Shown here piece by piece: positions 15,485-37,471 of a stretch of 64,000 bases of DNA (within the stretch, counting starts at the first letter, position 1; every line of letters begins with the position of its first letter). The translations under genes and the position numbers were made by a program. The DNA is from Bdellovibrionia bacterium (GTDB lineage Bacteria; Bdellovibrionota; Bdellovibrionia; Bdellovibrionales; JAGQZY01). The stretch lies in NCBI GenBank assembly GCA_030424665.1, contig JAUHWN010000003.1, positions 6,996 to 70,995 on the forward strand. Direction: 5' to 3'. The notes beneath the pieces are model-generated. The model searched no databases and had not been told where the DNA came from. It saw nothing but the letters and a program-made list of their open reading frames with translations.

Positions 15485-15506
15485 CTGACCGTTTTGTTGA
15501 CGCTAA

Positions 15507-15532
15507 TGCACTACCAAAAGGAAGCTTCTACC
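15507..15532 (-). repeat. Dispersed short repeat, copy 2 (right arm of the inverted repeat)
   Basis: TGCACTACCAAAAGGAAGCTTCTACC is the perfect reverse complement of 15419-15444. It supplies the last 7 codons and the stop of the minus-strand ORF. Confidence 0.85.
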
Positions 15533-18870: not shown

Positions 18871-19062
18871 GAAGTTTTATATTAAATTTGAGCTACTTAC
18901 AGTTCAACAGGAAGATCAATAAGGGGACTATGGCCCCAGTCGTTTTGTATCTTAATTGTAAAATCAAGCCTTAGGTCTGAATTGCGCTGAATTGAGTCAA
19001 GGTTCACTCCTAAAGTGTCGAAAAGAAGTTGATAGGAGATTTTCTCCACGGGAGTGCACTGT

Positions 19063-21417
19063 ATGAAATATACAAGTATTTTGGCAATTTTAGTAAGCAT
19101 GACCTTTCTGCTGACGACAATAAAGTCGGAAGCATTTTCTGGTTATGGATACGGAATGTATGGAGCCATGCAAGCTTGCCCTTTTGGCGTTTCAGGAGCC
19201 AATGGAGCGAGTGACGACGAAGATGCGATTGATGAACTTCGAGGGGATCGTCGTGAATTGCAAGATCAAATTAGAGATTTAGAACGACTAATTGGTCGCG
19301 CTGATGATCGCATTCTAGAACTTCAAGACAAAGTGCAAAGGGTTGTGAATAGCGATTACTGGCCAGCTGTTGAAGAACATATTCGCGATCAGAAAAACTG
19401 TTCTTGCGATTACAGTGTACAGCTTCTTGATCCAGCATTTGCTCCTTCTATTGTCGCTCCCACAAGAGGCAGCAAAGTTATGGTCACAACGATGACCCCT
19501 AGATCAACAAGAGCTCCAGCGTCTGTAAGTCGCGGACCGGCTGGTGTGAATGCCGAAGAGCAAGCACCAGATGGTGTCTGTAACACAGCTCAAGATATTA
19601 TTGATCCCGATTGTGATGGTGCATGTGACCTTCGTCATGAAAATACCGATTTAGACTGCAGACCTCAAGAACAAGCGGCTACCGAAATTGATTGTAGTCG
19701 GCCGGAAAATCGAAGTAACCAAGCCTGTGCGACAGCGGCTGATCCCGAACAAGTTGGCCGATCTGAAGAAACCATCGAAGTTTCAACAGATGGATATTGT
19801 GAAGCGGGAACTGCCGGTTGTTCTCCACGAGAAGTTGCAGTAGATCCTGCACCAACGGGTCGAGACCCAGCTTCTGAACCGGGCTGTGCTGAACGTTTAA
19901 GAGGAGTCGGTGTTACTGACGAGTCCTATATTGCACGTAACTGTGCGCCGAGTTCGGTGAGTGCGGGCTATGATGATGGCGGATCACCTTTTTGTGTATC
20001 ACCAGAAACAGCCCCAATTGTAGTTACTGACAACTGGAGACGAATTTGTATTTCGAATGGTGGAATTCGTGCAGCTGTCTGTGATGGTGCTGCTTATACA
20101 AGAAACGGTGTGAGTTCAAGAGATCGTTCCGATTGTCGAAACGCTCTCAATAGACTTCGCCAAGCTCAAGATCGTAGAGCTTCTCTTGAGCGAAGATTAG
20201 CTGAATACAACGATCAACTCGGTACAATCGAAGATGATCTTGCCGATGCAGAATTTCGCAGAGACTTTGACGATGATCTCGAAGCGGATTGTGCCGATGG
20301 TGAATGTTACACCCGTCGCCACAGAAGAGATCGCGATAGAAATAGTTCTACTTCAAGTATCATTGGTACAATTGGGTCAATTGGTCTTGGTGCTTTAGGA
20401 CTTTACTTAGGAAATCGTCGAGCGAAGGAAGCGATCAATACGAACGCTGACTTGGGTTGGCCGACGAATCCGTACCTCGCCAGTGGATTTGGTTTTCCAT
20501 ACGCTGCTGCCGGGTTATACGGCGCACTTAATGGAGGACTCGGAGCTGGTGGCTTTGGTTGCGGTGCTGGTGGACTCGGTCCTTTGGGAATGGCATCACC
20601 TCTTGCTGCCCTCGGTATGTACGGTGGCGGTCTTGGCGGTGGAATGTTTATGCCGGGAATGGGACCATGGGGAATGGCTGGCCTTGGTGGCGGAATTCCT
20701 GGAATGGGAATGGGCGCTCTCGGTGGCTTTGGTGCCATTGGTGGAGCTATGGCCCTTGGGGGTCTCGGCGCTTACGGAACTCTTGGTGGACTCGGTTACA
20801 TGGGGGCGCTTGGAGCTTATGGTGCTCTTGGAGGACAACTCGGTGGAATTGGTGCTTTAGGCGGACCCATTGGTGGTCTCGGTATGATTGGTGGAATTCA
20901 GGTTGGCGTGCTCGGTGGATACGGAGCCCTCGGCGGCGGACTCGGAGCCCTCGGAACCATTGGTGGTCTCGGCGCCCTTGGAGGTGGACTCGGAGCCTTA
21001 GGCGGTGGTCTTGGCGCTCTTGGAGGCGGACTCGGAGCCTTAGGCGGTGGTCTTGGCGCTCTTGGAGGTGGACTCGGCGCTTTAGGCGGTGGTTTGGGTG
21101 CCCTTGGAGGAGCGCTTGGCGGTCAATACACACAACAACTACTGCAGTTACAAATGCAACAACAACAGCAGCAAGCCGCTCAATTACGAGAGTACACATC
21201 TTTGATGCAAGAATACCAATCCCTTCAATTGAGACTGATGCAGTTTAACGGACTCGGTGGAGTTGGTGGTCTTGGTGGAGTTGGAGGACTCGGTGGCGTT
21301 GGAGGACTCGGTGGAATCGGTGGGGCCCTCGGTGGGGGAACTCTTCTTCCGACAAGTCCTACGACTCCAATTAATTCTTTCCCTGGATCGGGTACGACTC
21401 CTTCGCGAAGTCGATAA
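19063..21417 (+). CDS. Large secreted/membrane protein: coiled coil, Cys-rich region, TM-like segment, Gly/Leu/Ala-rich repeats, poly-Q
   Basis: The ATG at 19063 has GGAG 8 nt upstream. The track starts at the GTG at 19054. The signal peptide is MKYTSILAILVSMTFLLTTIKSEA. About 20 Cys lie between two coiled-coil-like segments. The hydrophobic segment IIGTIGSIGLGALGLYLG is followed by NRRAKE. Then comes ~320 aa of GGLGALG-type repeats, QQLLQLQMQQQQQQAAQL and GLGGVGG repeats. Confidence 0.75.
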   Translation: MKYTSILAILVSMTFLLTTIKSEAFSGYGYGMYGAMQACPFGVSGANGASDDEDAIDELRGDRRELQDQIRDLERLIGRADDRILELQDKVQRVVNSDYWPAVEEHIRDQKNCSCDYSVQLLDPAFAPSIVAPTRGSKVMVTTMTPRSTRAPASVSRGPAGVNAEEQAPDGVCNTAQDIIDPDCDGACDLRHENTDLDCRPQEQAATEIDCSRPENRSNQACATAADPEQVGRSEETIEVSTDGYCEAGTAGCSPREVAVDPAPTGRDPASEPGCAERLRGVGVTDESYIARNCAPSSVSAGYDDGGSPFCVSPETAPIVVTDNWRRICISNGGIRAAVCDGAAYTRNGVSSRDRSDCRNALNRLRQAQDRRASLERRLAEYNDQLGTIEDDLADAEFRRDFDDDLEADCADGECYTRRHRRDRDRNSSTSSIIGTIGSIGLGALGLYLGNRRAKEAINTNADLGWPTNPYLASGFGFPYAAAGLYGALNGGLGAGGFGCGAGGLGPLGMASPLAALGMYGGGLGGGMFMPGMGPWGMAGLGGGIPGMGMGALGGFGAIGGAMALGGLGAYGTLGGLGYMGALGAYGALGGQLGGIGALGGPIGGLGMIGGIQVGVLGGYGALGGGLGALGTIGGLGALGGGLGALGGGLGALGGGLGALGGGLGALGGGLGALGGGLGALGGALGGQYTQQLLQLQMQQQQQQAAQLREYTSLMQEYQSLQLRLMQFNGLGGVGGLGGVGGLGGVGGLGGIGGALGGGTLLPTSPTTPINSFPGSGTTPSRSR
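20977..21102 (+). repeat. Three tandem 42-bp repeats (two GGGLGAL heptapeptides each) inside the Gly-rich gene
   Basis: The unit CTTGGAGGTGGACTCGGAGCCTTAGGCGGTGGTCTTGGCGCT occurs at 20977-21018, at 21019-21060 (1 mismatch) and at 21061-21102 (more diverged). Degenerate copies flank it. Confidence 0.85.
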
Positions 21418-21442
21418 AAAACTTAAAAATTTGATTTTAACA

Positions 21443-21470
21443 ATGGGGCTTTTACAAGCCCCATTTTTTT
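21443..21470 (+). terminator. Rho-independent terminator after the Gly-rich gene
   Basis: Stem ATGGGGC / GCCCCAT with an 8-nt loop, followed by T7. Confidence 0.7.
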
Positions 21471-22086
21471 AGAAGCTGATGCTGGTTTGGGGCACGCGCG
21501 AAACCCTCTCTGTATCTGATCTCCTATTGAAATTATGCTGATAAATCTTAACCCCAGCGAAAACACCCAAAGCACCCAGTCCCCAGTACAGCCATTCCCT
21601 CTTCGAGGACCCTGCCACTCTATGTTTGGTCTCGGGGAGTTTTGGTGAATCTAGTACGCTAACGGAGCTGACAGCGAGTTCCTTTTCGTTTGCTTTTGTT
21701 GATTCATCGGAGGGTTTTTGATTGATGTACTCAAGAACTAAGGGAGGTGGAAAAAGCTCCAAGTCTATCCCACTGCCGTCTGCAAACTTCCAGGCTTTTG
21801 CCAGAAGTACTAATCGCAATTGCTCACGAGAGGTCAACTGGGCACATCGAAGGAGGGCGTAATGAAGTAACTCTTTTGTCGAACCCGTGAGTGTCTGATT
21901 CTCATATTTCTCTATCAGAGACATAAATTGATCACGAGCCTCGTTTAGGGTTCCTTCGTGATAAGTTTTCTGTGCCTTTTCGAAATCCTTGATGAGTAAT
22001 CCCTCAATTTCTTGAGAGGCATTAGCCCAGTGAAGGTTCCATGCACTCAGCGTGAAGAAAAAGATAAGTATATTCAAAAGATTCAT
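21469..22086 (-). CDS. Hypothetical exported protein with a helical (TPR-like?) region and a C-proximal TM segment; last gene of the Tad-like module
   Basis: 205 aa with signal peptide MNLLNILIFFFTLSAWNLHWANA and TM segment WLYWGLGALGVFAGVKIY. Its start overlaps the upstream gene's stop by 4 nt. Confidence 0.55.
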   Translation of the reverse strand: MNLLNILIFFFTLSAWNLHWANASQEIEGLLIKDFEKAQKTYHEGTLNEARDQFMSLIEKYENQTLTGSTKELLHYALLRCAQLTSREQLRLVLLAKAWKFADGSGIDLELFPPPLVLEYINQKPSDESTKANEKELAVSSVSVLDSPKLPETKHRVAGSSKREWLYWGLGALGVFAGVKIYQHNFNRRSDTERVSRVPQTSISF

Positions 22087-22613
22087 AGCTCCCCCAAAGT
22101 ATTTTTTAGATAAATGATGCGATCTTTGTTTGGATCTTTATCAATTTTAGTACCAAGTTTATTTGGGTTGTGAACGGCAACCCAGTAGAGACGGTCTTGA
22201 CTGAGAACTTGTGGAACTTCGGTCTCTGGGATTAAAATACTAACTTCAGATGCCCTCTGTGGGGACCTGAGAAGGCGCAGGGCTGATCCAATTCTTCTTG
22301 TGCTTTTTTCATCTGGATTTTTTCCGTAAAGATCTACAACAGCTTTATTTCCAATTATCGAGTCTAAATTCTTAGAATTTTGAATTTCAAGGGGAACGAG
22401 TACATAGCCCTGGGGAATGTAGGTATCGACCAACTGCTCGATGGGCTGTTTGTGGCCATCGGCATCTTTGAAACTATGAGCAATGAAACTAGAAGTAGCA
22501 ATGAGGAGGGCTCCATAAATGGGCCACCTGAATTGAATGATCTTCGCTTTAATGGTTTTGATTAATAGAGTGCTAGGAGCAGTAATTTCAGGGGCTTTTA
22601 GTGTGAAATCCAT
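22083..22613 (-). CDS. CpaB/RcpC-like pilus assembly protein (short, no obvious SAF domain)
   Basis: 176 aa with one N-terminal TM (WPIYGALLIATSSFIA). The pattern IPQGYVLVPLEIQ...IIGNKAVVDLYG...EVSILIPETEVPQVL...LYWVAVHNP follows the RcpC/CpaB C-terminal domain pattern. This is a motif-level call. Confidence 0.45.
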   Translation of the reverse strand: MDFTLKAPEITAPSTLLIKTIKAKIIQFRWPIYGALLIATSSFIAHSFKDADGHKQPIEQLVDTYIPQGYVLVPLEIQNSKNLDSIIGNKAVVDLYGKNPDEKSTRRIGSALRLLRSPQRASEVSILIPETEVPQVLSQDRLYWVAVHNPNKLGTKIDKDPNKDRIIYLKNTLGEL

Positions 22614-22734
22614 TTTCTATGACCTCGGTAGAAGTTGTTTCAAAATCAAAAAAAAGAATAAGAAGGGCCGAAAGAATCATAATGATGATTAAGAGCTCTA
22701 GGAGGCCCTGTCCCTTTTCAGATAGATACGCCAT
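22588..22734 (-). CDS. 48-aa Flp/TadE-type prepilin-like peptide (not in the ORF track, below cutoff)
   Basis: Hand translation gives MAYLSEKGQGLLELLIIIMILSALLILFFDFETTSTEVIENGFHTKSP. It shares the EKGQGxxE-plus-hydrophobic-stretch motif with the two neighbouring pilin-like genes. It overlaps both flanking genes. Confidence 0.4.
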   Translation of the reverse strand: MAYLSEKGQGLLELLIIIMILSALLILFFDFETTSTEVIENGFHTKSP

Positions 22735-23423
22735 GGTGTCTCTCCTTTAAAGTCGATTTGTGCTCGGCAACGAATAGGATCATTCTCAACTCCTCCAATT
22801 TTTTTTATAAAAGGATCAATGTAGGTGATTTTGTTTGTCCAACTCAGTGGTCTTGAGTTTTTGCGATGAGTGTCCCAGGAATAAGTCCTTCCAAGCCCTT
22901 TAAGAGACTCTGTTTTAGTTACCAGAAGATGGTGAAAACCCGGTTTAATATGAACGTGACACTCTCTTTTCAGAATGGAGTTGCTTCGGCAAAAGAACTT
23001 CTTAAGTTTGACTTTAAATCGACTGATGTGCAGTCGGCTCTTTCCTTGGGCCCCCAGTTCAATGAGGTCTTGTTTTTTCGCGATGTTTTGCAAATTCTTT
23101 CGCAGTCGATTGATTCGAATCAAAATTTTAGCTTTATGGGCTGGAGAGGGATGGGCTCCCAATTTGGCTATCTCAAGCGCGATTTTTGTCCGCAACCGGT
23201 AGACATGTGTGTTGGTATCAATGAGTTTTTGCGAAGCCTTAGCCAAAATCCAGTGGTGTTTAACAATAGTTTTGCGGCAAAGTTGTTTTTGCGCAAAATG
23301 GTTTCCCAGGGAATATCGAAAAAGTGAGCTAGCCAGGATCGACAATATAATTACGGGAAGAAGAAATCCGAAACTGACGAGTAGACTTCCATTATCATCT
23401 TTTGTCATTTGCGGTTCTTTCAA
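22698..23423 (-). CDS. TadG-like pilus-associated protein
   Basis: 241 aa. The N-terminus DNGSLLVSFGFLLPVIILSILA resembles the TadE/TadG-type N-terminal segment. The rest is basic and unrecognised. Confidence 0.4.
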   Translation of the reverse strand: MKEPQMTKDDNGSLLVSFGFLLPVIILSILASSLFRYSLGNHFAQKQLCRKTIVKHHWILAKASQKLIDTNTHVYRLRTKIALEIAKLGAHPSPAHKAKILIRINRLRKNLQNIAKKQDLIELGAQGKSRLHISRFKVKLKKFFCRSNSILKRECHVHIKPGFHHLLVTKTESLKGLGRTYSWDTHRKNSRPLSWTNKITYIDPFIKKIGGVENDPIRCRAQIDFKGETPWRIYLKRDRAS

Positions 23424-23784
23424 AAGGTTTCATAGACATCGTGTTAAAAAGCCTAAGGGGATGATTAAAAAAAGGAATAGGGTGTCCCCAAAGTTCTTGT
23501 TTTAAGTGCAGTTGACGGTTGAAACCCTTTTCAATTTTGACGTCTGACTTTAGGAGAGGAAAGAAGAAGCGACTTCTTTTGCGATATTCATCAAGACAAG
23601 GTTTTTCTCTCTCGACAATACTATGGCAAAGAAGTAATTCATGGCCGGCAAAAAGGTGAAGCTGTCGGGCCATACTCAAAAGACTTAGAAGTATAAAACT
23701 AAAAGAAAACAATAATAAAATTGGGAGGCAAAAGAGCGTTTCTATCGCGGATTGCCCCTTTTCGTTTTTTAAACCTATCTTCAT
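23395..23784 (-). CDS. TadE-like pseudopilin
   Basis: 129 aa. The N-terminus MKIGLKNEKGQSAIETLFCLPILLLFSFSFILL has the G/xxxxE processing-type motif followed by a hydrophobic helix. Confidence 0.55.
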   Translation of the reverse strand: MKIGLKNEKGQSAIETLFCLPILLLFSFSFILLSLLSMARQLHLFAGHELLLCHSIVEREKPCLDEYRKRSRFFFPLLKSDVKIEKGFNRQLHLKQELWGHPIPFFNHPLRLFNTMSMKPFERTANDKR

Positions 23785-23799
23785 CTTTCTACTCTTTTC

Positions 23800-24054
23800 T
23801 TACTGAGTTGCCACACCATTGAAAAAGTCAGACATGTCTTTTTTCTTAGTGTGACTTTCTTGCACCGGAGCGACTTTGATACGTTTTTTACTTCCCCCTT
23901 GAATGGCATAAGTGACTTGGGCGAATTTTGCACTGACCGTTTGATTAAGTGTCCTAACAATGGCTATGGTTGCAACTCCCATTAGGGCAACCAATAGTAA
24001 ATATTCAATCAGACCCTGGCCGTTTTCGTTTTTGTGGAATAGGTGTTTTTGCAT
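23800..24054 (-). CDS. flp: Flp-family type IVb pilin
   Basis: 84 aa. HKNENGQGLIEYLLLVALMGVATIAI matches the Flp motif (G/xxxxEY followed by a hydrophobic stretch). It is the first gene of the minus-strand module. Confidence 0.7.
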   Translation of the reverse strand: MQKHLFHKNENGQGLIEYLLLVALMGVATIAIVRTLNQTVSAKFAQVTYAIQGGSKKRIKVAPVQESHTKKKDMSDFFNGVATQ

Positions 24055-24280
24055 AATTCCTCCTCGATGGCCGGAAAGACTTCAAAATACGGGGCCCTCT
24101 CAGATTGAGTCAGGCTATAAGAAGAACTGTTTCATTCGGTTGTCCCGTTCGAAAATTGAACGTTTCAAAGGAAAACGTTAGTAGAAAAAACGCAGAATTT
24201 TTGCGACGAAAGGGTGAAAAATCCCGACCAAAATACCGATTTATTATACAATTAGAGATCAATTTGTTGAGGGCCTAAAA

Positions 24281-25435
24281 ATGAGAACGTTGACTGAACG
24301 GGCCGCAAAGATTCTCCTATGGAGGATCTTGCTAGCCTCTTTCGTTGTGTTTTCGCTCGGTTGCGAGGAAAACACGGTGGAGGATGGGGGTTCCACGGTC
24401 GACGTCATTCCGTCCGATCCTGATGACCCTTTCTTCCCCGGAGCATTCGTATGTGACGCCTTTAGTGGCGCGGACGATATCACTGATGTCAGTCAGGGTA
24501 TCGTAGGGTCCCTGTTTTATCTAGAAGACGGGGTGACTCCCTATGGTAACGTTCACGACTATATTAATCTCGGTACTGAAGTGACCGATGTCTCTCTCTT
24601 TTTTAACCAGATTAACATTCCAACCCGGCCATGGGATCGCGGGTTTGTAACACGCGATGGAGAAGTCATTCAAACAGAGGATGGAGATACTTTGTATGAG
24701 TGGTTTGCCATGAACATGGATACAGATATTGTTTTAACCAGCGAAGAGCCCGAGGGTGATTATCAGTTCGCCATACTATCAGATGATGGCGCAGTACTTA
24801 CGATCGATGGTCAAGTCATCGTCGATAATGACGGTGATCATCCAACGCGCTTTGGCTGTGCTGATACGCCGATTAGTATCGACCAAGCCAGTCGCCTCGA
24901 GGCGAATATCAAGTACTACCAAGGACCTCGTTACCACATTGCCATGATTGTTATGTGGCGTCCTTGGCCTGAAAACATTGCCGATGTCGATGACCCCGAG
25001 TGTGGAAGAGAAGGGAACTCGAGATTTTTTGATTCGACTCAAGACCCGCCAACACCCCAACAAAGCTATCAAGATTTACTCAATCGTGGGTGGGCTCCTT
25101 TGGGAGCAGCCAATTTTAAAGTGCCTGGAGACATCATTAATATGTGTAACTTTCCGGCACCAACAATTTCTAGTATTCAATTTAATGACCTTGGGTCGAC
25201 CTATGTAGAACTCATGTTTTCTACGAATATTCCATCTAAGTTTTATATAGAGGTCACAAACCTAGCCACTGGAGAAGTCACTCAATCTCCGGTGAGTGAT
25301 AACTATGTGAAAAATCATATGGGTTCAGTCACAAGTCTGGAGCCATTTACACTTTATAAGGCAGAAATAGTCGCGAGTAGTGTTTCAGGAAGAGAGACGA
25401 GAAGCGCCCCACTCAACTTTAGGACGCGTCCATAG
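24281..25435 (+). CDS. PA14-domain exported protein (possible lipoprotein) with a C-terminal FN3-like module
   Basis: 384 aa with a signal sequence ending in a Cys (FVVFSLGCEEN). The PA14 signature is GDYQFAILSDDGAVLTIDGQVIVDNDGDHP. The C-terminal ~90 aa are beta-sandwich-like (YVELMFSTN...YKAEIVASS). The stop abuts the next gene's ATG (TAGATG). Confidence 0.7.
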   Translation: MRTLTERAAKILLWRILLASFVVFSLGCEENTVEDGGSTVDVIPSDPDDPFFPGAFVCDAFSGADDITDVSQGIVGSLFYLEDGVTPYGNVHDYINLGTEVTDVSLFFNQINIPTRPWDRGFVTRDGEVIQTEDGDTLYEWFAMNMDTDIVLTSEEPEGDYQFAILSDDGAVLTIDGQVIVDNDGDHPTRFGCADTPISIDQASRLEANIKYYQGPRYHIAMIVMWRPWPENIADVDDPECGREGNSRFFDSTQDPPTPQQSYQDLLNRGWAPLGAANFKVPGDIINMCNFPAPTISSIQFNDLGSTYVELMFSTNIPSKFYIEVTNLATGEVTQSPVSDNYVKNHMGSVTSLEPFTLYKAEIVASSVSGRETRSAPLNFRTRP

Positions 25436-27514
25436 ATGAAAGTAAAATTTTCGATTCGATATAAGTTTTTGGCTGTTACCACTTTGCTCTTGCTGAGTTG
25501 TGTAACTTTATATTTGCTTCTCGCTTCAACCATTTTTAGTCGCGATAAAACAGAGCTTGTTTTTGATTTAAACAAGTCCACTGTTCATAATATTCGCTCA
25601 GAGATGGAAGCGGTCTTTTCTTCTGTGAGTGATAAGTTAGAGCTTTTTGCTTTGATTTCTCAATCTAAGCTCAAAGTCAAAAAAGAATTTCATCGCATTC
25701 TCGATAATGACGACACAATAGTTTATGTCCATTCTACGAATTCCAATAAATTTCAAAAGACGAGTGAATACAGTCAAAAGAAGTTTCTTCAGACTTATGG
25801 TCTTGAGGAAAAGTACTTTAAAGAAACCCTTCCGGGTATTAGAGCCGTTCCGATGGATGAGATTAAAGCCAATGGTCTTGCCTATTGGAATGCGACAGTG
25901 GATGGCGGTCCATTTTTAGTTGGAGTTGGTCGAAGTGTTGTACAAGAAGATTCCCGTGGCGTGGCCGTTTCACAGTTTGCTGTTATTAGTTATGTGCGAA
26001 TGGATCGTATCGCCAAAATGATAAACGAACTTCGAACCAACGAGGTGAGTATTGTCAGTGATCAAGGACAAGTTATTGTTGGCTACGGAGCGAAAGAAGC
26101 AAAGCCATGGGAGCTCTTTAGTCTTGCTCAAAGGAATCCTTTGAATTTAGGTGTTCTTGAGTATCAAGATCAGCAGGGTAAAAAGATGCTCGGCGGATTT
26201 TCTAAAAGTACGAAAAATCGTTTTTATGTACTTTCGCGGGTCGCGTCTGACAAGGTATTCGCTGTGGTCGAGAATCTCGTCTATCGCTCCATTGTGTTCG
26301 GCCTTATTATTGTGACATTGACCTTTATTGCCGCGATATTATTTTCACGCTCTATTACCCGACCTCTAGACACTCTCGTTGATGGTATGAAAGAAGTTTC
26401 TGGGGGAACATTATCTAAGCATATCGAATTGCGAACGATTGACGAAACAGCAGTTTTAGCCTCTTCTTTTAATCGAATGATTGATGATTTAAAAGAGTCT
26501 CGAGATCAACTTGAAGAGATAAATCGCGATCTCGAACAAAAAGTAAAAGATCGCACTAAAATGCTCGAAGAGCAGAATCGCGCGGTCAAACAGGCTCAAG
26601 AAGCATTGCTAAAGACGACCCGCCTCGCCTCGGTTGGAGAGATTGCGGGTCGCGCAGCTCATGAAATTCTCAACCCTTTAACGTCGATCATGACCAGAAT
26701 TAAGAAGGTGAGCGATAAGATAGAAGGTAATGCTGTCACAGATATTCAGTTTTTGGCCGAAATTCAGTCGAGCTGGGAAAACGACTTTAAATCGGGTGGC
26801 TTTGAAAAGTTGATTGCAGAGTGGCAGAAACCCTCTGAGGTAGATCAAGACAGTAATCTGTGGAACGAAGACATGAGTCATCTTAAAGAGGTGAATAAGA
26901 GTGTTGTCGATCAACTGACCTCATTGACGAACGATATGAAATTCCTGCTGAGTGAGTCTCAGAGAATTAGTAAGATTGTTCAGAGTATGAGATCCCTGTC
27001 TATAGTTAAGGGGAACAAGGCCAAGTATTCGGCCCATAAGCTTCTTCATGAGTCTGTGAATATAATGGGTGACCTCTTTGCACAGAATGAAGTTGAAGTC
27101 GTTGAGTGGTACGAAGCCAAAGAAGATGAAATTGTTGTTGATCGCGATGAATTCATCCAGAGTTTGACGAACCTTCTGCGCAATTCTCTGCAAGCAGTTC
27201 AAGAGATCGACAGGGACGGTTACAAACCGAAAATAGGATTGTTAACACGAATCGAAGAAGGCGAATTGATTATCGAAGTTGTTGATAACGGCACAGGGAT
27301 CGAGCCAGAACATAGAACTAAACTTTTTGAAACCCAGTTTTCTACAAAAGATCGCGAAGAGGGGACCGGCTTGGGCTTAAGCATCTCAAGACGATTTATT
27401 CGCGCCTACGGTGGTGATATTAAATTCATGGGTGACAACGAAAATTGGAACGCAGTCTTTCGTATTACGCTTCCCGCAAAAGAAGTTGAAAGACCGATGG
27501 AGGCCGCAGCATGA
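25436..27514 (+). CDS. Sensor histidine kinase (two TM, ~260-aa periplasmic domain, HAMP, HisKA, HATPase_c)
   Basis: 692 aa. TM1 is FLAVTTLLLLSCVTLYLLLAS and TM2 is IVFGLIIVTLTFIAAILFS. HAMP region: RPLDTLVDGMKEVSGG...FNRMIDDL. H-box: AAHEILNPLTSI. G-boxes: DNGTGIEPE and GTGLGLSISRRF. Confidence 0.85.
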   Translation: MKVKFSIRYKFLAVTTLLLLSCVTLYLLLASTIFSRDKTELVFDLNKSTVHNIRSEMEAVFSSVSDKLELFALISQSKLKVKKEFHRILDNDDTIVYVHSTNSNKFQKTSEYSQKKFLQTYGLEEKYFKETLPGIRAVPMDEIKANGLAYWNATVDGGPFLVGVGRSVVQEDSRGVAVSQFAVISYVRMDRIAKMINELRTNEVSIVSDQGQVIVGYGAKEAKPWELFSLAQRNPLNLGVLEYQDQQGKKMLGGFSKSTKNRFYVLSRVASDKVFAVVENLVYRSIVFGLIIVTLTFIAAILFSRSITRPLDTLVDGMKEVSGGTLSKHIELRTIDETAVLASSFNRMIDDLKESRDQLEEINRDLEQKVKDRTKMLEEQNRAVKQAQEALLKTTRLASVGEIAGRAAHEILNPLTSIMTRIKKVSDKIEGNAVTDIQFLAEIQSSWENDFKSGGFEKLIAEWQKPSEVDQDSNLWNEDMSHLKEVNKSVVDQLTSLTNDMKFLLSESQRISKIVQSMRSLSIVKGNKAKYSAHKLLHESVNIMGDLFAQNEVEVVEWYEAKEDEIVVDRDEFIQSLTNLLRNSLQAVQEIDRDGYKPKIGLLTRIEEGELIIEVVDNGTGIEPEHRTKLFETQFSTKDREEGTGLGLSISRRFIRAYGGDIKFMGDNENWNAVFRITLPAKEVERPMEAAA

Positions 27515-28815
27515 GTAGCGAGAGAGCAAAGAGCCTTCAAGAGATTGAAGAGCAGAAGAAAAATAAGTTAAGAGACGTCTCTTATAATCGTCGAATCTTA
27601 GTCGTCGAAGATGAGCCTGAGATTGCCGACTCCTATCGCAGACTTCTTGGGCAGCCCATTCAGCAAAGAAAACAAAGAAGATCTTCGCGAGGTGGAATGC
27701 AAAAGATGGCGTCGGCCGGGAGTGAGAGTTTAGAAAGAGAAAAGTTTATTATCGATATTGTCCACACGGCTGAAGATGCCCTAGTGCGCATTGAAGATTC
27801 TGTCGATGAAAATCGACCCTATGCCATGGCCTTTGTGGATGTCTTACTCGGTGAGGGAAAAGATGGAATTGAGCTTGTTCGCGAAATATTTAGCATGGAT
27901 AGTGACATCAATTGCGTATTTGTTACAGCTTACCAAGATCGTTCGGTTGATTCGATCCACGATCTCCTCGGACAGGAAAATAGCAACCGTTGGGATTACC
28001 TTAATAAACCCTTCTCTGATGGGGAAATTCTGCAAAAGGCTCGAAGTTCGATTAGTCTTTGGAACATGAGGCAACAAAGAGATCTCAAGCAACAGGAACT
28101 ATCGGAGGCGCGATCTCGATTACTGAGTTCTGAAAGAATGGTTTCAGTGGCAGCGGTAGCTAGAGGCGTTGGTCACGAGTTCGGAAATATACTCCTGCAT
28201 ATCATGGGTCGAGCTGAGCTCTCACGAATGGGCGAAGAAGAAGACATGAAGCACGGTCTCGATGTCATTCTTAAGGCCTGTGAAACAGCTACAGGTATTT
28301 TAGAAAAATTTAACGGCCTTGCAAAGCCGAGTGAAGAAAAGAAGAAACATCAGAGTATATTGGCTATGCAGCCTTTGAATGAAGCTTTAGATTTGATGTC
28401 TCACCAGTTGATGAGTTTTGAAGTCAACATCACCGCAAATGAAGATGATGTACTAACTTGTGAGGCTTCCAGTCATTCGTTGGTACAAGTCTTTGTAAAT
28501 TTAATTATGAATGCCATGGACGCCATGGGCGAAAGTGGCCGCATAGATATTTCATTGAAAGATGATGGAGATTGGGTTGAGTATCGAGTGAGGGATTTTG
28601 GCCCAGGAATTCCAGAACACATAATTGATCACGTTACAGAAGCATTTTTCACAACTAAGGGAAACAACGGGACAGGTTTAGGATTAGCCATCTGCCGCGA
28701 GATTGTTGAAATCGAGCACGGTGGTGAGTTCGTTGTTAAAAACCATTGTCAGCAAGGCGCAGAATTTGTGATCAGAGTGCCAAAAACGCAGGCATGGGAG
28801 GGGAAAAGTGAGTAG
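27511..28815 (+). CDS. Hybrid receiver / histidine kinase
   Basis: 434 aa. REC domain (RILVVEDEPEIADSY...FVDVLLGEGKDGIELV...KPF), then H-box GVGHEFGNILLHIMGRAEL and HATPase_c (DFGPGIPEH, GTGLGLAICREIV). It overlaps the upstream kinase gene by 4 nt. Confidence 0.85.
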   Translation: MSSERAKSLQEIEEQKKNKLRDVSYNRRILVVEDEPEIADSYRRLLGQPIQQRKQRRSSRGGMQKMASAGSESLEREKFIIDIVHTAEDALVRIEDSVDENRPYAMAFVDVLLGEGKDGIELVREIFSMDSDINCVFVTAYQDRSVDSIHDLLGQENSNRWDYLNKPFSDGEILQKARSSISLWNMRQQRDLKQQELSEARSRLLSSERMVSVAAVARGVGHEFGNILLHIMGRAELSRMGEEEDMKHGLDVILKACETATGILEKFNGLAKPSEEKKKHQSILAMQPLNEALDLMSHQLMSFEVNITANEDDVLTCEASSHSLVQVFVNLIMNAMDAMGESGRIDISLKDDGDWVEYRVRDFGPGIPEHIIDHVTEAFFTTKGNNGTGLGLAICREIVEIEHGGEFVVKNHCQQGAEFVIRVPKTQAWEGKSE

Positions 28816-29233
28816 TGAAAATGATTTGAGCATCGTTGTCGTCGATGACGACGCATTGGCCAGATCAATTATCGTCGAGTTCTTACAGTCCTTTGGATAC
28901 TCGAAGATTAAGCAATTTGGTTCTGGAGATCAGGCTATTAAATATATACAAGATGTGAATAACCCTGTGGATCTTGTGCTTTCCGATTGGGAAATGCCCA
29001 ATGGCACCGGTTTAAGTTTATTAAAAGCAGTACGCTGTAATACCGTTCGCAAGGACCTTCACTTTATGATGGTCACAAGTCAGCGCTCCCAGGAGCGATT
29101 TAAAATTTCTCAGGCTGCAAAATGGCGGGTTGATGCCTATTTAATTAAGCCTTTTCGCGGTAAAGTCTTGCGCGAAAAAGTAGACGAACTCGCCCAAAGT
29201 GCCATGCGGGAAAGAGCGAAACAGGCCAGCTAA
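28808..29233 (+). CDS. Single-domain CheY-like response regulator
   Basis: 141 aa with a GTG start after GGGAGGGG. REC residues: VVVDDD, LVLSDWEMPNGTG and YLIKPF. It overlaps the upstream gene by 8 nt. Confidence 0.85.
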   Translation: MSSENDLSIVVVDDDALARSIIVEFLQSFGYSKIKQFGSGDQAIKYIQDVNNPVDLVLSDWEMPNGTGLSLLKAVRCNTVRKDLHFMMVTSQRSQERFKISQAAKWRVDAYLIKPFRGKVLREKVDELAQSAMRERAKQAS

Positions 29234-29367
29234 TTATGTAAACTCAGTTCCCTTTTAAGTGAGATTTGGGAACTCGATTTTAGTCAGTATGTGTCCTCGA
29301 TCAAGGTTTGTAGGACTGTGTGAATTTTTTAAGGTGTGGGATAATTAAAGTGAGAAAGAGGAACTGG

Positions 29368-31122
29368 ATGAGAATCCTTTTAGGCACTTTAATTTTAATC
29401 TTCTTAGTATCGTCGCCGGTAAGTGCACAGGTGGGTGATAGCTTTGAAGTGGATATCACTTTTGATATGATCGACCGATCAACTTCAACGTTTTTTATAA
29501 ACGATCAAGATGGATTATTAGAGCCTCCTTTTTATGTCTACCAGGCCAATGATGGTCTCACGGGTTTATTTAACAAAAATATAAATGTGGGTGATGGTAG
29601 TGATGGGGTTTTTAACGCGACAACTTACGCTCAGTTTAGTGAGGGTGGCGATTTGTCCGGCAATATCATTCGCCTGAATCTAGCAACCTATCCGGAACTC
29701 AATGTGACCGAATTTGATCTCGAAGCCGGATGGACCATTGAGCCCATCGGTAACACTCCCTTGATTATTCGGAGCACTGGGACTGTAAATATTGCTGGAA
29801 CCATAGATTGTTCTGGAGAAGATGGCGAAGACGGCCGTGCTGGTATGGGTGATCGCGATGTGGTTTCATTGGGTGGCCAAGGTGTTTGCGGCGGTGGCAA
29901 CGGTGGAGATGGTGGATATCAATCGACCAACGCTACAAATGGTACAGAGGTCGGTGTTTTACCTATCGGGCCTGGTCAGGCGGGTGGTCGAAATACGGCT
30001 GATGCCAATGGGGCCGGTGGCGGTGGCGGCGGTGGTGCATTCGCTCCCGATACCCCTGGACTCGATGGTCCTTCAGACGGAAAAGACAATGGTGGTTTTG
30101 CCCTTGGCGGTCCCCGTGGAACTTCTTTTGAAGACAATGTGATTGCCACACAAGGTGGCGGTTCCGGTGGCGGCGGCGGCGGATACGCAGATTTCGGCGG
30201 TTCCGGTGGAACCGGCGGCGGTGGCGGTGCTGGCGGTGGCTCAGTTTATATATTCGCTCGCGGTAATATTGATATTGATGGTTTTATAGATGCCAGTGGC
30301 GGTGATGGTGGAGCTGAAGCCGACACCAGTGGCCCTGGTGGTGGTGGCGGTGGTGGTACCGTCTTTATTATTTCTCGAGGTATTATTAATGTTGCGGGTA
30401 ACGTCAATGCCGAAAGGGGCCAAGGCGGTAGTAGCGCTGGCAATGATGGTGATGGTGGTCAAGGTCGAACTTTCGTTAATGATCTAACCGACGACAATGA
30501 CTTTGGCTTTACAGGAGTTGCAGCCAATGTTCTTCCGCCTGCACTTTTCGCGGACTGGGGAAAGACTTTGTCTCGAGTTGCTGGACCGGCGGCAGTGGCG
30601 GATCCGACAGAGGTGAGTCCCGCTGATTACTACGAAATCGAAACTCAAGTTCTCGATACTGAGGCTCGTTCCTTTGAGGTCACAGACTTTACTGTCTATG
30701 GTAATAATCCTGGAAATGGAATTGTAGTCGTGCAAATGAAGGGCGCTCGCACCGAGGCAGCTCTAGAGCTGACTGATTACGAAACCTTGGCTTCGGGTAC
30801 CACCAAGGTCTTTCAAGACTCTCGTTTTTATAAAGTGAGAGTACGAGCCACAAATACAAGTCGACAAAATCCACTTCAAATCACGGGATTGGTTGTTAAT
30901 TTCTCAAAGTCTCAAGTGAATAGTTTTGAATTCAAAAGTGATGGGGGCGGTTGCGGAGCTATTTTACCGCTTGTGGGCTCAGGAGGCTCTGGCCCGGGTA
31001 ATGCCGATGGTTTAAGAGAAGCTCTATGGTGGCAGTCGCTTCTACTTTTGACCCTACTCCTCGCTCCCTTGAGTCTTATATTTTTCCGAAGGAAAAAAAG
31101 ATTTCAATTGAGCACTATTTAG
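29368..31122 (+). CDS. Exported glycine-rich, probably beta-helical surface protein with a C-terminal TM-plus-basic tail
   Basis: The ATG at 29368 (MRILLGTLILIFLVSSPVSAQ) follows GAGAAAGAGGA. The track starts at 29320. Poly-Gly runs (GAGGGGGGGAF, GGGSGGGGGGY, GGGGGAGGGSVYIFARGNIDIDG, PGGGGGGGTVFIISRGIINVAG) alternate with short beta-strand-like segments. The C-terminus is GGGCGA...WWQSLLLLTLLLAPLSLIFFRRKKR. Confidence 0.7.
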   Translation: MRILLGTLILIFLVSSPVSAQVGDSFEVDITFDMIDRSTSTFFINDQDGLLEPPFYVYQANDGLTGLFNKNINVGDGSDGVFNATTYAQFSEGGDLSGNIIRLNLATYPELNVTEFDLEAGWTIEPIGNTPLIIRSTGTVNIAGTIDCSGEDGEDGRAGMGDRDVVSLGGQGVCGGGNGGDGGYQSTNATNGTEVGVLPIGPGQAGGRNTADANGAGGGGGGGAFAPDTPGLDGPSDGKDNGGFALGGPRGTSFEDNVIATQGGGSGGGGGGYADFGGSGGTGGGGGAGGGSVYIFARGNIDIDGFIDASGGDGGAEADTSGPGGGGGGGTVFIISRGIINVAGNVNAERGQGGSSAGNDGDGGQGRTFVNDLTDDNDFGFTGVAANVLPPALFADWGKTLSRVAGPAAVADPTEVSPADYYEIETQVLDTEARSFEVTDFTVYGNNPGNGIVVVQMKGARTEAALELTDYETLASGTTKVFQDSRFYKVRVRATNTSRQNPLQITGLVVNFSKSQVNSFEFKSDGGGCGAILPLVGSGGSGPGNADGLREALWWQSLLLLTLLLAPLSLIFFRRKKRFQLSTI

Positions 31123-33539
31123 AATTGAATTCCTAGAAAGACTTCGCCTTTAAAGCTCGAGGAGAAGTCTCTTTCACCGAATTTTATTTGTCTGTAGTTG
31201 GCTCGCGGCTCTAGGGTTAATAGAAAGTGTTCAAAATCAAATAGGATCACATGCCAAGAGGGTTGGATTCCCCACTCTAGAACTTGATCACCAGCTCGAA
31301 GACTCAACTCAGTTTTGAAGCGGTGGTTGCGACTCAATGGGTAGTCGACCATCACATAGGCCCCGTAAACAAATTTTTGTCTAAAGGCAATGGCTTCGGC
31401 ACTTGCCCTGTAAACTTCACTGACTTCACCAAAGCTAATACCGTAGTTAAAAAGGTAGTCCTTCTGTTCTGCTCCCAAGTCGACGGACCAAACAGTTTCT
31501 TTGAGGCGAGGAGTTCCTTCGGTTTGCCCGAATACCACCTCTTTCCATGTACTCTCGTGGTATTCGGCATCGAGATACAATAAGTGACTACCAAAATAAT
31601 CAAGAGCCATACCGATTTTTCCGTTGATAAGTTGAAGACCCGCAAATTCACCACTAGAGCTTTCGGACCCTTCGAGCTCATTGACGACATAGGCCGCCCC
31701 GTAGCTCATCCAAAACCGATTTTGTGGAGGTTCTTCTGGAGTCGGTGCCACCTCTACGATGGGCTCGGGGGTCGGCGTTGGTTTTGGTTTAGCCACAGGT
31801 TTTGGCGTCGGAGTGGGCTTTGGCGGTGCTTTCCTCACATTAATGCTCTTGCTGATGCGCACTGGAGTTATTGATTTAGCCTTGGCTCGAAGATCTCGCA
31901 TATTGAGTTCTTCGATTTCACTAAACAAACCCATTCGGCCGTCATTGGCTCCACCGGCAACCCGCCAATAGATATTTCCTTCGGCTGTCGTCTCCCAAAA
32001 ATAGCGCGTCGTTTTGACTTTTTGAGTGTGTAGTAGATCCCTAAAATCCGAGCGCTTAGAAATTTCGATGACATAGTGATCAGCTCCGTCAACCTTCTCC
32101 CAGGCAAATCCAATCTCTATGCGCTGGCCAAAATCTTTACTACTTTTTTTCTTAGATTGAGCGGCTGATTTTCCAATGATCACTGCAGATAAGGTCCCTA
32201 CTAAGTCAAATCGATTCGAAGAATTTTTGTAACTTCCTTGCTCCTCTTTTTTGTCCTGCTTTTGATCGTTCTTTGAAGAATCATTAGGGTCAGTGGTTCC
32301 AGGTTTATTTTTTTCTTTGGAGTTTGATGGACTTCTTTTTGACTCTTCTATTTTCGACCTTTTAACTGCCGATGTCGATTTCAATTTTGGGGCACTTAAA
32401 GGCCTTGGAGTGATAAAAATGGGATTTGAATAAAGGGGAGGAATTTCAAAGCCATCTTCATCAAGGGCGATCACTTCCCAATGTTTTTGGCCCACTTCAC
32501 TTGGACGAATATTTTTACTCGTTCCTTTGGCTTCAAAACTCTTTTCATCGGATTCGTTTTTAAGCTTTAATTTGAATTGATCGATTTGTGCGCGACTCAA
32601 CCATTTAAAAGAAACATCAGTTCCCGCAGGAACTCGGTCCCGCGGTAGTGGAGAAATCAGATGAACGATGGGCGCTGGTCTGACCTCAATGGTTTTTGCT
32701 AAAGAAAGTTCATTTTGACCTGCGACTCTAACGTAGTAAGTCCCTGGAAATAGAAATACATCTTGCTCTGAAAAGTCAGAGCGGATGGGAATTATTGTTT
32801 CTTCGTTTCCTAGTTTTTCGAGGCTAATACTTTCTGCAGGCCCTTCCCATTGAATGGGATAGCGGATTGGGAAGGTGTGGGAGTAAACTCTTTCGAATTC
32901 GTTGCCCTTAACTCGCATTTCAAGGGAGACTTCATTCACTTCAAAACTTTGATCACTATTGAACTGGGTGAGGGTTCCCGAGTCAATTCGTGTGACCTTT
33001 TCTGTTTCAGGCGATGAGAGCTCGACTGCTCCATCAATGACTTCAAGTTCGAAATTATCTTTGAAGGATCTGATTTCAATCTGCGAACCCTCTTCGGCCG
33101 ATATACTATAGGATTTGGTTTCAAGAGTTGTGTTCTTAGAAAGTCTCCCTGTACGAAGGGCTCCCTGCTCAAACTTTAAACGGATCTTTTTATCGGCCTG
33201 TTCGGTTTGCTCTTGCTCCAAAAACACAAGAGTGTTTTCTGATAGAGAAAGTTCGACCTCATTATCGAGAATTATTTTTGCCGAAGAGTTGTCGAGGGTG
33301 AGAAGAGTGTCTTTGTTGTAAATTTTTGAAGCGGCTCTGCCATCTTCCCAAATCAGATTGTTGAGAGATCGTCTTCGAACGTTGTTGTGAACAAATTGAA
33401 TTTGGCCAATGATGGCCTCGCTATTTTCAATCTTGTTTTTAGAAAGCCATGGGATATGGATCACTTGTAGGTCATTGAGTAGCCAAGTGCTCAGAATAAT
33501 TAATATGCTAGTTGCGATTGATATTAGCCAGCGATCCAC
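31119..33539 (-). CDS. Large envelope protein: N-terminal TM, FecR-like domain, Ig-like middle, Pro/Lys linker, C-terminal probable beta-barrel
   Basis: 806 aa. TM: LISIATSILIILSTWLL. FecR-like: IGQIQFVHNNVRRRSLNNLIWEDG...TLLTLDNSSAKIILDNEVELSLSENTLVFL. Linker: PPKPTPTPKPVAKPKPTPTPEP. The C-terminal region has alternating hydrophobic residues and ends in ...VFLGIQF (terminal Phe). Domain calls are motif-level. Confidence 0.55.
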   Translation of the reverse strand: MDRWLISIATSILIILSTWLLNDLQVIHIPWLSKNKIENSEAIIGQIQFVHNNVRRRSLNNLIWEDGRAASKIYNKDTLLTLDNSSAKIILDNEVELSLSENTLVFLEQEQTEQADKKIRLKFEQGALRTGRLSKNTTLETKSYSISAEEGSQIEIRSFKDNFELEVIDGAVELSSPETEKVTRIDSGTLTQFNSDQSFEVNEVSLEMRVKGNEFERVYSHTFPIRYPIQWEGPAESISLEKLGNEETIIPIRSDFSEQDVFLFPGTYYVRVAGQNELSLAKTIEVRPAPIVHLISPLPRDRVPAGTDVSFKWLSRAQIDQFKLKLKNESDEKSFEAKGTSKNIRPSEVGQKHWEVIALDEDGFEIPPLYSNPIFITPRPLSAPKLKSTSAVKRSKIEESKRSPSNSKEKNKPGTTDPNDSSKNDQKQDKKEEQGSYKNSSNRFDLVGTLSAVIIGKSAAQSKKKSSKDFGQRIEIGFAWEKVDGADHYVIEISKRSDFRDLLHTQKVKTTRYFWETTAEGNIYWRVAGGANDGRMGLFSEIEELNMRDLRAKAKSITPVRISKSINVRKAPPKPTPTPKPVAKPKPTPTPEPIVEVAPTPEEPPQNRFWMSYGAAYVVNELEGSESSSGEFAGLQLINGKIGMALDYFGSHLLYLDAEYHESTWKEVVFGQTEGTPRLKETVWSVDLGAEQKDYLFNYGISFGEVSEVYRASAEAIAFRQKFVYGAYVMVDYPLSRNHRFKTELSLRAGDQVLEWGIQPSWHVILFDFEHFLLTLEPRANYRQIKFGERDFSSSFKGEVFLGIQF

Positions 33540-33625
33540 ATCTAACTTATCGGAATAGCTAGCTTTTTATTGGCGTTTCTGGAGTCTAATTCGGACCTTC
33601 GGCGGGTCCTAAAAAGTGCATTAAA

Positions 33626-33841
33626 TTACTTCTTCTTTTTGCTGGCTTTACGTCGCTGGGAGATCTGGTCAAGAATGGCAAACGCTTCGGCGCGAAGGTC
33701 ATTTTCGTAGACGAAACGATAAAATCCCTCAATTTCGGGGCTCTGACGAAACTTCTTCATAGAAGATGGCATGTTTTCACTGGTAGTGAAGTCGATGGTA
33801 CCGTCGCTAGCTACGCGAACCTTTTTTCTGCTTTTAGTCAT
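33626..33841 (-). CDS. Small basic hypothetical protein
   Basis: 71 aa with a GGGGAGAA RBS. It has K/R-rich termini. Family not recognised. Confidence 0.45.
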   Translation of the reverse strand: MTKSRKKVRVASDGTIDFTTSENMPSSMKKFRQSPEIEGFYRFVYENDLRAEAFAILDQISQRRKASKKKK

Positions 33842-33961
33842 AGATTTTCTCCCCTGGACCTAGTTCTATCGGTCAAAACCGGTTCTGGTCAAGTTAGGAC
33901 CTTGGTTTTGGTGGGATTTGTGTTACAAATTCCTGTGAAAGTGGCCAATTGGGAGGGATCC

Positions 33962-37104: not shown

Positions 37105-37471
37105 ACGTCGTTCTAAGGAGCAATGGAAGTGCCACGAGAAACACATGAAAACCGAGTATGGGCAGTTTCGTCGAGTAATAATTACAGAACTGACCGCATT
37201 TTGAACGAAAGCTCGCGAGTCACAAATTTTGTTAGTTTGCCTAATAGTTTAACAGAGACGAAAAATCGAAGGTTTGATCCTATTCGCAATTTTTATCCTC
37301 TTAGTAGGGTATTTTTGAAAGGGAGTAAAATTTGATAGATAGAATTGAATTTTAAAGCCTAGAATATGGGAATAGACCTTGCTACTACTTTCTATTACTA
37401 GAGTGGGATTTTAGAACTGGTACTGAGTCAAAAGCATTGACTACATATCAGTGTTTATTCAGGAGACTTGA

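Follow-up and report, generated by a model that had tools for sequence, protein, structure and literature searches.

The span 19063-33539 of the window (the whole 64,000-nucleotide stretch analysed here, chromosomal DNA of a Bdellovibrionia bacterium) encodes a series of envelope and signalling proteins which a first-pass annotation had tentatively joined into one surface sensing and attachment system of 15 genes. We consider it fairly probable (about 0.6) that the span consists of three adjacent, separable units, namely a conserved envelope-signalling core of six genes (24281-33539), a Flp-type pilin cassette (21469-24054, minus strand) and a lone gene for a Gly-rich membrane protein, and is not one apparatus, because synteny in related genomes keeps the core genes together and does not keep the remaining genes with them. 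Open reading frames (ORFs) of at least 50 amino acids (aa) are numbered G1 to G12 in order along the span, the core being G7-G12, and related genomic loci are designated L001, L002 and so on.

Genes of the span and its six-gene core

A six-frame listing, made at first pass with a cut-off of at least 50 aa, bore out the ORF coordinates and placed 13 ORFs in the span, 12 of at least 50 aa and one conserved pilin-like ORF of 48 aa. The 15 genes counted earlier were not recovered, and the gaps (51, 84, 15, 226 and 86-134 bp) are too small for others. Directly upstream of G1 lie genes for a REC-HisKA-HATPase hybrid kinase (17767-18870, minus strand) and a 329-aa secreted coiled-coil protein (16660-17649, minus strand), both conserved only in L001, and these two may account for the higher count. 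As had been described, every product of the span is exported, membrane-bound or involved in signalling, judging by a signal peptide, membrane helix or signalling domains in each translation, and no housekeeping gene was seen among the translations of the span. The domain calls Flp, PA14, FecR, HAMP/HATPase, REC-HATPase and REC hold in Pfam, with Flp_Fap and TadE below the gathering score. An NCBIfam scan added no further family assignments for the span proteins, and G1, G2, G3, G4 and G11 had no family match in Pfam or NCBIfam. The tight gene packing was likewise found as reported: G7 and G8 abut at 25435/25436, and overlaps occur of 4 nt at 27511-27514, 8 nt at 28808-28815 and 4 nt at 22083-22086.

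The first core gene, G7 (24281-25435, plus strand), encodes a 384-aa lipoprotein that contains a PA14-like domain and, at its C-terminus, an FN3 domain. Its PA14 match scored 28.1 bits against a gathering score of 24 and covered only profile positions 59-112 (Pfam PF07691), and its own fn3 match in Pfam is weak. Within the family, PA14 was found in 10 of 29 members at E<=0.01 and fn3 in 26 of 29. The family profile matches FN3 structures in the PDB (E 1e-8), and a sequence search of the PDB found no solved PA14 relative. Most homologues carry the lipobox Cys in the form L-[TSA]-[GA]-C.

G7 is followed by three signalling genes on the same strand. G8 (25436-27514), whose start codon abuts the G7 stop, encodes a 692-aa histidine kinase in which two transmembrane helices enclose a periplasmic domain of about 250 aa and are followed by HAMP, H-box and HATPase regions (Pfam HAMP 48.4 bits, HATPase_c 65.8 bits, HisKA weak). 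G9 (27511-28815) is a cytoplasmic REC-histidine kinase of 434 aa (Response_reg 38.5 bits, HATPase_c 89.8 bits), and G10 (28808-29233) is a single-domain CheY-like response regulator of 141 aa (Response_reg 69.3 bits) with no DNA-binding domain. The expected two-component features are present, with H-box and HATPase in the histidine kinases and a conserved Asp in the receivers; the translations show the H-boxes HEILNPL and HEFGNIL and the sequence contexts of the acceptor Asp residues.

G11 (29320 or 29368 to 31122, plus strand; 600 or 584 aa) consists of a signal peptide, a beta-solenoid, a jelly-roll domain, a Cys in an [AGS]-C-G context, a transmembrane helix and a basic tail. The description of two Gly-rich low-complexity proteins bracketing the locus stands for G1 and fails for G11: structure prediction of 29368-31122 with AlphaFold2 (AF2; 64 sequences) gave an ordered Gly-rich beta-solenoid with a mean predicted local distance difference test score (pLDDT) of 86.2 and a predicted template modelling score (pTM) of 0.81, and with the jelly-roll domain at residues 422-514. 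The model had no PDB fold match at E<=1e-3 and only a weak resemblance to models of viral Gly-rich and tailspike proteins (TM-score at most 0.26 on the query). Homologues share this C-terminal arrangement, in which a spacer separates the invariant Cys of [AGS]-C-G from a hydrophobic helix and a basic cluster follows, a tripartite layout like that of the sorting tags MYXO-CTERM, PEP-CTERM and GlyGly-CTERM. Unlike those tags, it is fitted by no curated CTERM hidden Markov model, and no sorting enzyme was identified, no search aimed at one having been made. Assignment as MYXO-CTERM or PEP-CTERM was rejected, as 10 C-termini gave no significant match to an NCBIfam CTERM model, the best scores being E 0.09 for Heimdall-CTERM (one homologue) and E 9.2 for PEP-CTERM (the window protein).

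G12 (31119-33539, minus strand) encodes 806 aa comprising a helix, a FecR domain, four Ig/FN3-like domains, Lys- and Pro-rich linkers and a 10-strand outer-membrane barrel. The FecR match (PF04773, residues 77-173) scored 29.6 bits against a gathering score of 24. The gene had been described as FecR-like with a beta-barrel, and the AF2 model (45 homologues; mean pLDDT 82.6) agrees with this, predicting a helix at residues 2-23, a FecR beta-sandwich at 43-205, three Ig/FN3-like domains at 215-392, a disordered Lys-rich linker at 397-468, a fourth Ig-like domain at 474-546, a Pro-rich linker at 559-600 and a 10-strand beta-barrel at 608-805. In Foldseek the solved fold nearest to the barrel was OpcA (2vdf; target-normalised TM-score 0.61, E 2e-5), and matches of the Ig array were generic.

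The convergent stop codons of G11 and G12 do interlock as TTAG at 31119-31122, but this is not a conserved feature, as the 97%-identical strain L001 has an extra ORF between the two genes. This ORF (L001 16895-18103, plus strand) encodes a 402-aa secreted protein with no Pfam match and stands exactly at the junction (about 31120 in the window). Unrelated ORFs occupy the same place in L007, L027, L033 and L069, and the G11/G12 junction thus appears to be a variable insertion site.

Synteny of the core in related genomes

Homologues of G7 number 426, and every one that is named comes from Bdellovibrionota. A profile built from 29 of them led to 80 genomic loci with up to 10 kb of flank on each side, 31 of which have complete flanks, and 21 window proteins were compared by tblastn with these PA14-centred loci. 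Identity of the PA14 protein ranges from 31 to 97% across the loci. Matches were obtained to G8 in 62 loci, G9 in 53, G10 in 48, G11 in 39 and G12 in 38; the counts are 1 for G1, 2 each for G2, G3 and G4, 1 for G5 and 3 for G6. All five partners of the PA14 gene (G8-G12) occur in 25 of the 31 full-flank loci, the three signalling genes G8-G10 in 27, and no partner at all in four. The four partnerless loci look like paralogous PA14 copies; one of them, L066, is a second copy in a metagenome-assembled genome (MAG) that also carries a complete block (L011). A PA14-family paralogue, in a family otherwise seen only in Bdellovibrionota, was also found on a contig binned as "candidate division WWE3" (L058, JBBRLF010000080.1), a label that is probably a binning error.

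The core block is present in Bdellovibrio sp. qaytius (L024), in Pseudobdellovibrio sp. HCB154 (L040) and in many Bdellovibrionales MAGs as well as in Oligoflexia and Bacteriovoracia-type MAGs, and its linkage is kept through at least three different rearrangements of gene order. Two Oligoflexia loci (L013 and L074) have the PA14 and FecR genes co-directional, followed by G11, CheY, REC-histidine kinase and histidine kinase genes in convergent orientation; the FecR gene diverges from the kinase operon in L055 and L076, and L057 holds the core genes together in yet another order.

The genes upstream of the PA14 gene are different elsewhere. Judged by sequence, they encode RpsD, glutamine amidotransferase-like, cytochrome-c-domain and zinc-ribbon proteins, PutA/aldehyde dehydrogenases and PhoD. 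A motif scan for class-III prepilin signals (G-X4-E and a hydrophobic run) near the PA14 gene gave convincing ORFs only in the window, L001, L002 and L003, where the PA14 protein is 97% (L001, from a Bdellovibrionia MAG), 70% (L002) and 51% (L003) identical to that of the window. In L005, the next relative after L003, rpsD stands where the Flp cassette would be.

A synteny comparison of this kind had been proposed in the first-pass annotation, and its outcome divides the proposed system. The PA14, kinase, REC-kinase and CheY genes do co-occur with G11 and G12 and behave as a unit. The occurrence of G1-G6 varies independently of these genes, a pattern that the annotation had itself named as refuting its proposal, and this leaves both the Flp module and G1 outside the unit.

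The output side of the core varies among relatives. The G10 orthologue is a REC-REC-TPR protein in Bacteriovoracia-type loci and a REC-TPR protein in Oligoflexia-type loci. Downstream of the FecR gene, L006 has a REC-GGDEF gene confirmed by Pfam, L009 and L018 have near-identical GGDEF-bearing ORFs, and L014 has a REC ORF of similar size. Receiver ORFs in relatives were located at 19608-20525 (L006), 19105-20091 (L009), 19099-20010 (L018), 11456-12745 (L055), 18293-19636 (L076) and 14967-15719 (L013). These GGDEF and TPR receivers are hints of cyclic-dinucleotide and protein-scaffold outputs, and because no related receiver has a DNA-binding output, the pathway most likely acts post-translationally. 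Identification of the REC-GGDEF neighbour as an orthologue of Bd0367 was dropped, as its PDB sequence matches were only generic (PleD, WspR-like), and the Bd0367 paper gave no gene-neighbourhood information.

The Flp cassette, G1 and the surrounding region

The Flp cassette consists of six minus-strand genes, encoding Flp, TadE-like and TadG-like proteins, a 48-aa pilin and two accessory proteins. It is headed by G6 (23800-24054; 84 aa), a Flp-type prepilin (NENG|QGLIEYLLLVAL...) in which G-X4-EY (NENG|QGLIEY) is followed by a hydrophobic stretch. Its Flp_Fap match (E 1.7e-6, 28.2 bits) lies below the Pfam gathering score of 32.2, and its homologues in L002 and L003 likewise match Flp_Fap. G5 (23395-23784; 129 aa) is a TadE-like pseudopilin with the prepilin motif NEKG|QSAIETL (Pfam TadE at E 0.0019, its 18.7 bits falling short of the gathering score of 22.9). 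The 48-aa ORF (22588-22734) overlaps the ends of G4 and G3 and falls below usual ORF length cut-offs; it reads MAYLSEKG|QGLLELL, a class-III signal (G, X4, E) followed by a hydrophobic helix, and has counterparts in L001 (8307-8453), L002 (1050-1229) and L081 (698-880). Class-III prepilin signals are thus found on G6, G5 and the 48-aa ORF.

G4 (22698-23423; 241 aa) has a hydrophobic pilin-like N-terminus and may be one of the large minor pilins (TadG/KilN type). G3 (22083-22613; 176 aa) has an N-terminal transmembrane helix and a beta-rich domain and by eye may be RcpC/CpaB-like, an impression not backed by a hidden Markov model. Neither G3 as RcpC/CpaB nor G4 as TadG found support from Pfam, NCBIfam or PDB sequences (G3 searched against the PDB at E<=10). 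A metagenome scan with a G3 profile yielded one 1.1-kb contig, L081, with matching local gene order and a G4 homologue in the same position. The last gene of the cassette, G2 (21469-22086; 205 aa), overlaps G3 by 4 nt and encodes a signal peptide, a helical domain and a C-terminal transmembrane helix; among the 80 loci its homologues occur only in L001 (86% identity) and L002 (31%).

No TadA/CpaF ATPase, TadB/TadC platform, RcpA/CpaC secretin or TadV/CpaA peptidase was found by Pfam among the tested ORFs of at least 100 aa in the 64-kb window. In our reading the cassette is a dispersed pilin and minor-pilin set, which would need a Tad machine encoded elsewhere. The first-pass annotation had drawn an analogy with the host-interaction (hit) locus of Bdellovibrio bacteriovorus. 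Published work indeed locates bd0108 and bd0109, the hit genes, at a Tad/flp pilus cluster, bd0109-bd0119 (PMC5430801; for hit-locus proteins, PMC3818213), but the window shows no Tad machinery.

As a prepilin away from Tad machinery, G6 is comparable to the non-TAD flp genes of Bdellovibrio and like organisms, of which flp3 (bd3297) is silent and dispensable and flp4 (bd4000) is needed for predation and independent of FliA (PMC5430801). G6 lies 13-14 genes after fliA and the flp3 of B. exovorus (a11q_630) 13 locus tags after fliA (a11q_617) (PMC5430801), a likeness that is a locus-tag lead only. Unlike these genes, G6 stands first in a cassette of six that also includes genes for a TadE-like protein, a TadG-like protein and a small pilin. 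In Myxococcus, four dispersed clusters of TadE/F/G-like genes build interchangeable tips on the Kil Tad pilus, and such dispersed pilin clusters have recently been tied to prey range (PMC12075869). Like these "Tip" clusters, the cassette belongs to a predatory lineage and has pilin-like genes of graded size (48, 129 and 241 aa) that do not adjoin the pilus machine, the two being likened by layout only; it differs in its additional major-pilin-like Flp and two non-pilin membrane proteins. It fits as a further case of the pilin clusters already known away from a Tad machine.

The Flp gene G6 and the PA14 gene G7 diverge from a spacer of 226 bp (24055-24280), as first reported. A shared promoter region finds less support, as only two ribosome-binding sites are conserved in comparison with L002, and the spacer is a lineage-specific junction of two modules. 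The best sigma-70-like match in it (minus strand, 24270-24243, 10 of 12 positions) points to flp. Two regulatory candidates were rejected: a conserved shared element, for want of conservation against L002 beyond the ribosome-binding sites, and a sigma-28 (FliA) promoter upstream of the PA14 operon suggested by ACCGATTT, since motifs of the CCGAT type, whether or not preceded by TAAA, were no commoner in the upstream regions of 61 loci than in shuffled sequences. Rfam had no match in the spacer or the locus.

G1 (19054 or 19063 to 21417, plus strand; 784-787 aa) forms a separate unit outside the conserved core. Its layout consists of a signal peptide, a GYGxYG motif, a coiled coil, a Cys-rich domain, a transmembrane helix, a low-complexity region, a Q-rich coil and a Gly-rich tail. 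The low-complexity region, rich in Gly, Leu, Ala and Met and about 250 aa long, is coded by 21/42-bp DNA repeats, tandem repeats being found at 20913-21110 and 21250-21323. With the N-terminal 446 aa, 86 representative-cluster homologues were found at E<=1e-3 and 18 at E<=1e-10; six that were fetched have the whole layout in common, including the GYGxYGGMQxCP motif, a Gly/Met/Ala/Pro/Tyr-rich region of about 250 aa and a ...GRTR-type end. G1 is thus a member of a real protein family of its own. Members of this family (proteins P0252-P0337) have the Gly/Met/Ala/Pro/Tyr-rich region after the transmembrane helix, for example GGMYMPGMGPWGM, and a basic conserved C-terminal end, a composition which recalls GroEL-type GGM tails or elastomeric proteins. 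Among the 80 loci, a G1 homologue lies within 10 kb of the PA14 gene only in L001, the L002 contig ending before the expected G1 position. Between the convergent G1 and G2 is a GC-rich hairpin (21442-21465) of 10 pairs followed by a T-run. By consensus match it is the strongest terminator-like site in 18700-34000 and looks like a terminator.

Upstream of the span are a flagellar export cluster with fliA (755-10146), rpoD and aspS, and downstream are folD, ecotin and an SLT transglycosylase gene. The genes for ecotin, a serine-protease inhibitor (34821-35303, minus strand), and for a large SLT-domain lytic transglycosylase (35464-37146, minus strand) stand just downstream of folD; they could serve predation-related envelope functions and are unlinked to the cassette in other genomes. 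The aspS gene is split into overlapping ORFs (13175-14593 and 14538-15413). Around 14580 the window lacks 20 bp (TCGAAGAAGCCCATGGCTTT) that are present in L001, giving a frameshift at the start of the GAD insertion domain; either the assembly is in error here or the aspartyl-tRNA synthetase is disrupted. Further away, a single 737-aa ORF (56002-58215, minus strand) contains COX1 (CcoN-like) and FixO (CcoO) domains and represents a fused cbb3-oxidase subunit; it adjoins FixP, FixG-like and P-type ATPase genes.

Proposed signalling role of the core and rival explanations

The best reading of the core is that of an envelope sensor feeding a kinase cascade that ends in a CheY-type regulator lacking a DNA-binding domain. 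The analysis shows which genes are present, their domain architectures and predicted folds, and where synteny is kept or lost; from this we infer what senses what, the order of phosphotransfer, the CheY target and the use of a distant Tad machine by the Flp cassette. The G7 lipoprotein, the anchored G11 solenoid and the G12 outer-membrane protein would make up the extracytoplasmic sensing part and would signal events at the outer membrane or surface to the kinase G8 through its periplasmic domain. Together with the REC-kinase G9, G8 would form a two-kinase cascade phosphorylating G10, which may act by direct protein contact on a motility, pilus or polarity target and not through transcription.

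Exported proteins that are encoded and translationally coupled with a sensor kinase are usually co-sensors. G7, G11 and G12 are proposed as co-sensors because their genes are linked or translationally coupled to the sensor kinase gene, and we find this role the more likely one; the abutting PA14 and kinase genes and the overlapping operon genes support a place on the sensor side. In the first-pass annotation the PA14 protein was the sensor and the fibres were the outputs. Exported proteins are unlikely to be transcriptional outputs here, because the sole dedicated response regulator has no domain for binding DNA; its counterparts in relatives are REC-TPR or REC-REC-TPR proteins.

The core is similar to Fec-type cell-surface signalling (FecA/FecR/FecI) in that G12 couples a FecR periplasmic domain to an outer-membrane beta-barrel and the locus also encodes a cytoplasmic signalling output, and it may plausibly be a relay from outer to inner membrane. 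Unlike FecR, G12 has no cytoplasmic anti-sigma domain, its transmembrane helix starting at residue 2 in the model, and its barrel is 10-stranded and fused to FecR instead of being a 22-strand TonB-dependent transducer. Neither the cassette nor its conserved relatives contain a gene for an extracytoplasmic function (ECF) sigma factor or indeed any sigma factor, the only sigma genes in the window being fliA and rpoD, at least 11 kb from the cassette, and the output of the core is a kinase cascade ending in CheY. By analogy, the core may also be set beside the Rcs and Cpx envelope stress systems (RcsF with OmpA/C/F, NlpE with CpxA), as it combines a lipoprotein with an outer-membrane barrel protein and a phosphorelay of several steps that would together report on the state of the surface or outer membrane. 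In this case no sequence relationship was detected with Pfam or NCBIfam, the terminal regulator G10 has no DNA-binding domain, and the parts are different (PA14/FN3, a Gly-rich solenoid and a FecR-Ig-barrel protein). The core thus resembles Fec-type and RcsF/NlpE sensing and is a member of neither. A bolder and rather unlikely version would make G12 a trans-envelope tether in a single polypeptide, with an inner-membrane helix, FecR and Ig domains, TonB-like Pro-rich spacers and a barrel of its own in the outer membrane. With the PA14 lipoprotein and the solenoid as partners it would be a new contact or mechanical sensor of predatory Bdellovibrionota, turning prey or surface contact into CheY phosphorylation via two kinases.

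Several points weigh against three separable units and a sensory core. All 80 loci were picked via the PA14 gene, and partner counts are therefore conditional on its presence. The Flp cassette adjoins the PA14 gene down to 51% PA14 identity (L003), and a lineage-specific functional link between it and the core may exist. Tad homology of G3 and G4 was not detectable with Pfam, NCBIfam or PDB sequences. The PA14 assignment of G7 is marginal, covering 54 of 147 profile positions and recurring in 10 of 29 members; the periplasmic sensor domain of G8 belongs to no recognisable family; and the N-terminal helix of G12 is either a cleaved signal peptide or a membrane anchor. Every step of the mechanism is a proposal made from genes and models, and so would be any physical contact among G7, G11, G12 and G8.

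The single contact-sensing and adhesion apparatus proposed in the first-pass annotation, in which all 13-15 genes take part with Flp and Gly-rich outputs and a PA14 phosphorelay as sensor, draws on the tight packing of genes that are all of envelope or signalling type, on the divergent Flp and PA14 genes shared by four related genomes at PA14 identities down to 51%, and on the requirement for Flp pilins in predation by B. bacteriovorus (PMC5430801). It is nevertheless distinctly improbable. Of the 27 full-flank loci with the kinase operon, none except L001 has a pilin-signal ORF or G1 homologue within 10 kb, and the upstream neighbours of the PA14 gene there are unrelated and housekeeping-looking. 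The spacer is not conserved in comparison with L002, a response regulator without a DNA-binding domain cannot directly drive fibre expression, and G1 is convergent with the Flp cassette, with the terminator-like hairpin between them. At the other extreme, the span might be no more than unrelated envelope genes brought together by chance, the only system being the operon of kinase, REC-kinase and CheY genes. The free variation of genes flanking the core is in keeping with this, as are the extra ORFs at the G11/G12 junction of several genomes, the 97%-identical strain among them. However, 25 of 31 complete loci have both G11 and G12 alongside the kinase operon, in several classes and after rearrangements, and with PA14 identities of 31-97% these loci are not a few near-identical genomes. 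We regard chance as highly improbable.

An unlikely but more tenable alternative is that the core is an adhesin or surface-structure operon, with G7, G11 and G12 as surface products (a solenoid fibre displayed via the barrel) and with kinases regulating their activity or localisation. PA14 and FN3 domains are common in adhesins, the G12 barrel resembles that of the adhesin OpcA, and G11 is weakly like phage tailspike and fibre beta-helices and ends in a three-part anchor that recalls surface-sorting tags. On the other hand, no curated sorting-tag model fits G11, and a 10-strand barrel would, by comparison with known autotransporter barrels, be narrow for passenger export. Conserved association with two kinases and CheY, and translational coupling of the PA14 and kinase genes, would also be more typical of co-sensors.

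Literature searches returned no paper combining Bdellovibrio with "PA14 domain", and the papers on Bdellovibrio and FecR were irrelevant; as far as we found, the six-gene core is undescribed. Two of its proteins are unusual, with a FecR-Ig-barrel fusion in G12 and a Gly-rich solenoid without a solved structural relative in G11. Separating the Flp cassette and G1 from the core avoids a misleading annotation of a 15-gene "system" and shows which genes to delete jointly, and the cassette itself adds to the known cases in which genes for pilins and minor pilins are clustered apart from those of the Tad machine. To our knowledge, the sensing of prey and surfaces by Bdellovibrio-like predators is poorly understood, and the core, conserved in several classes of the phylum, can be put to the test as a well-defined candidate for envelope or contact sensing.

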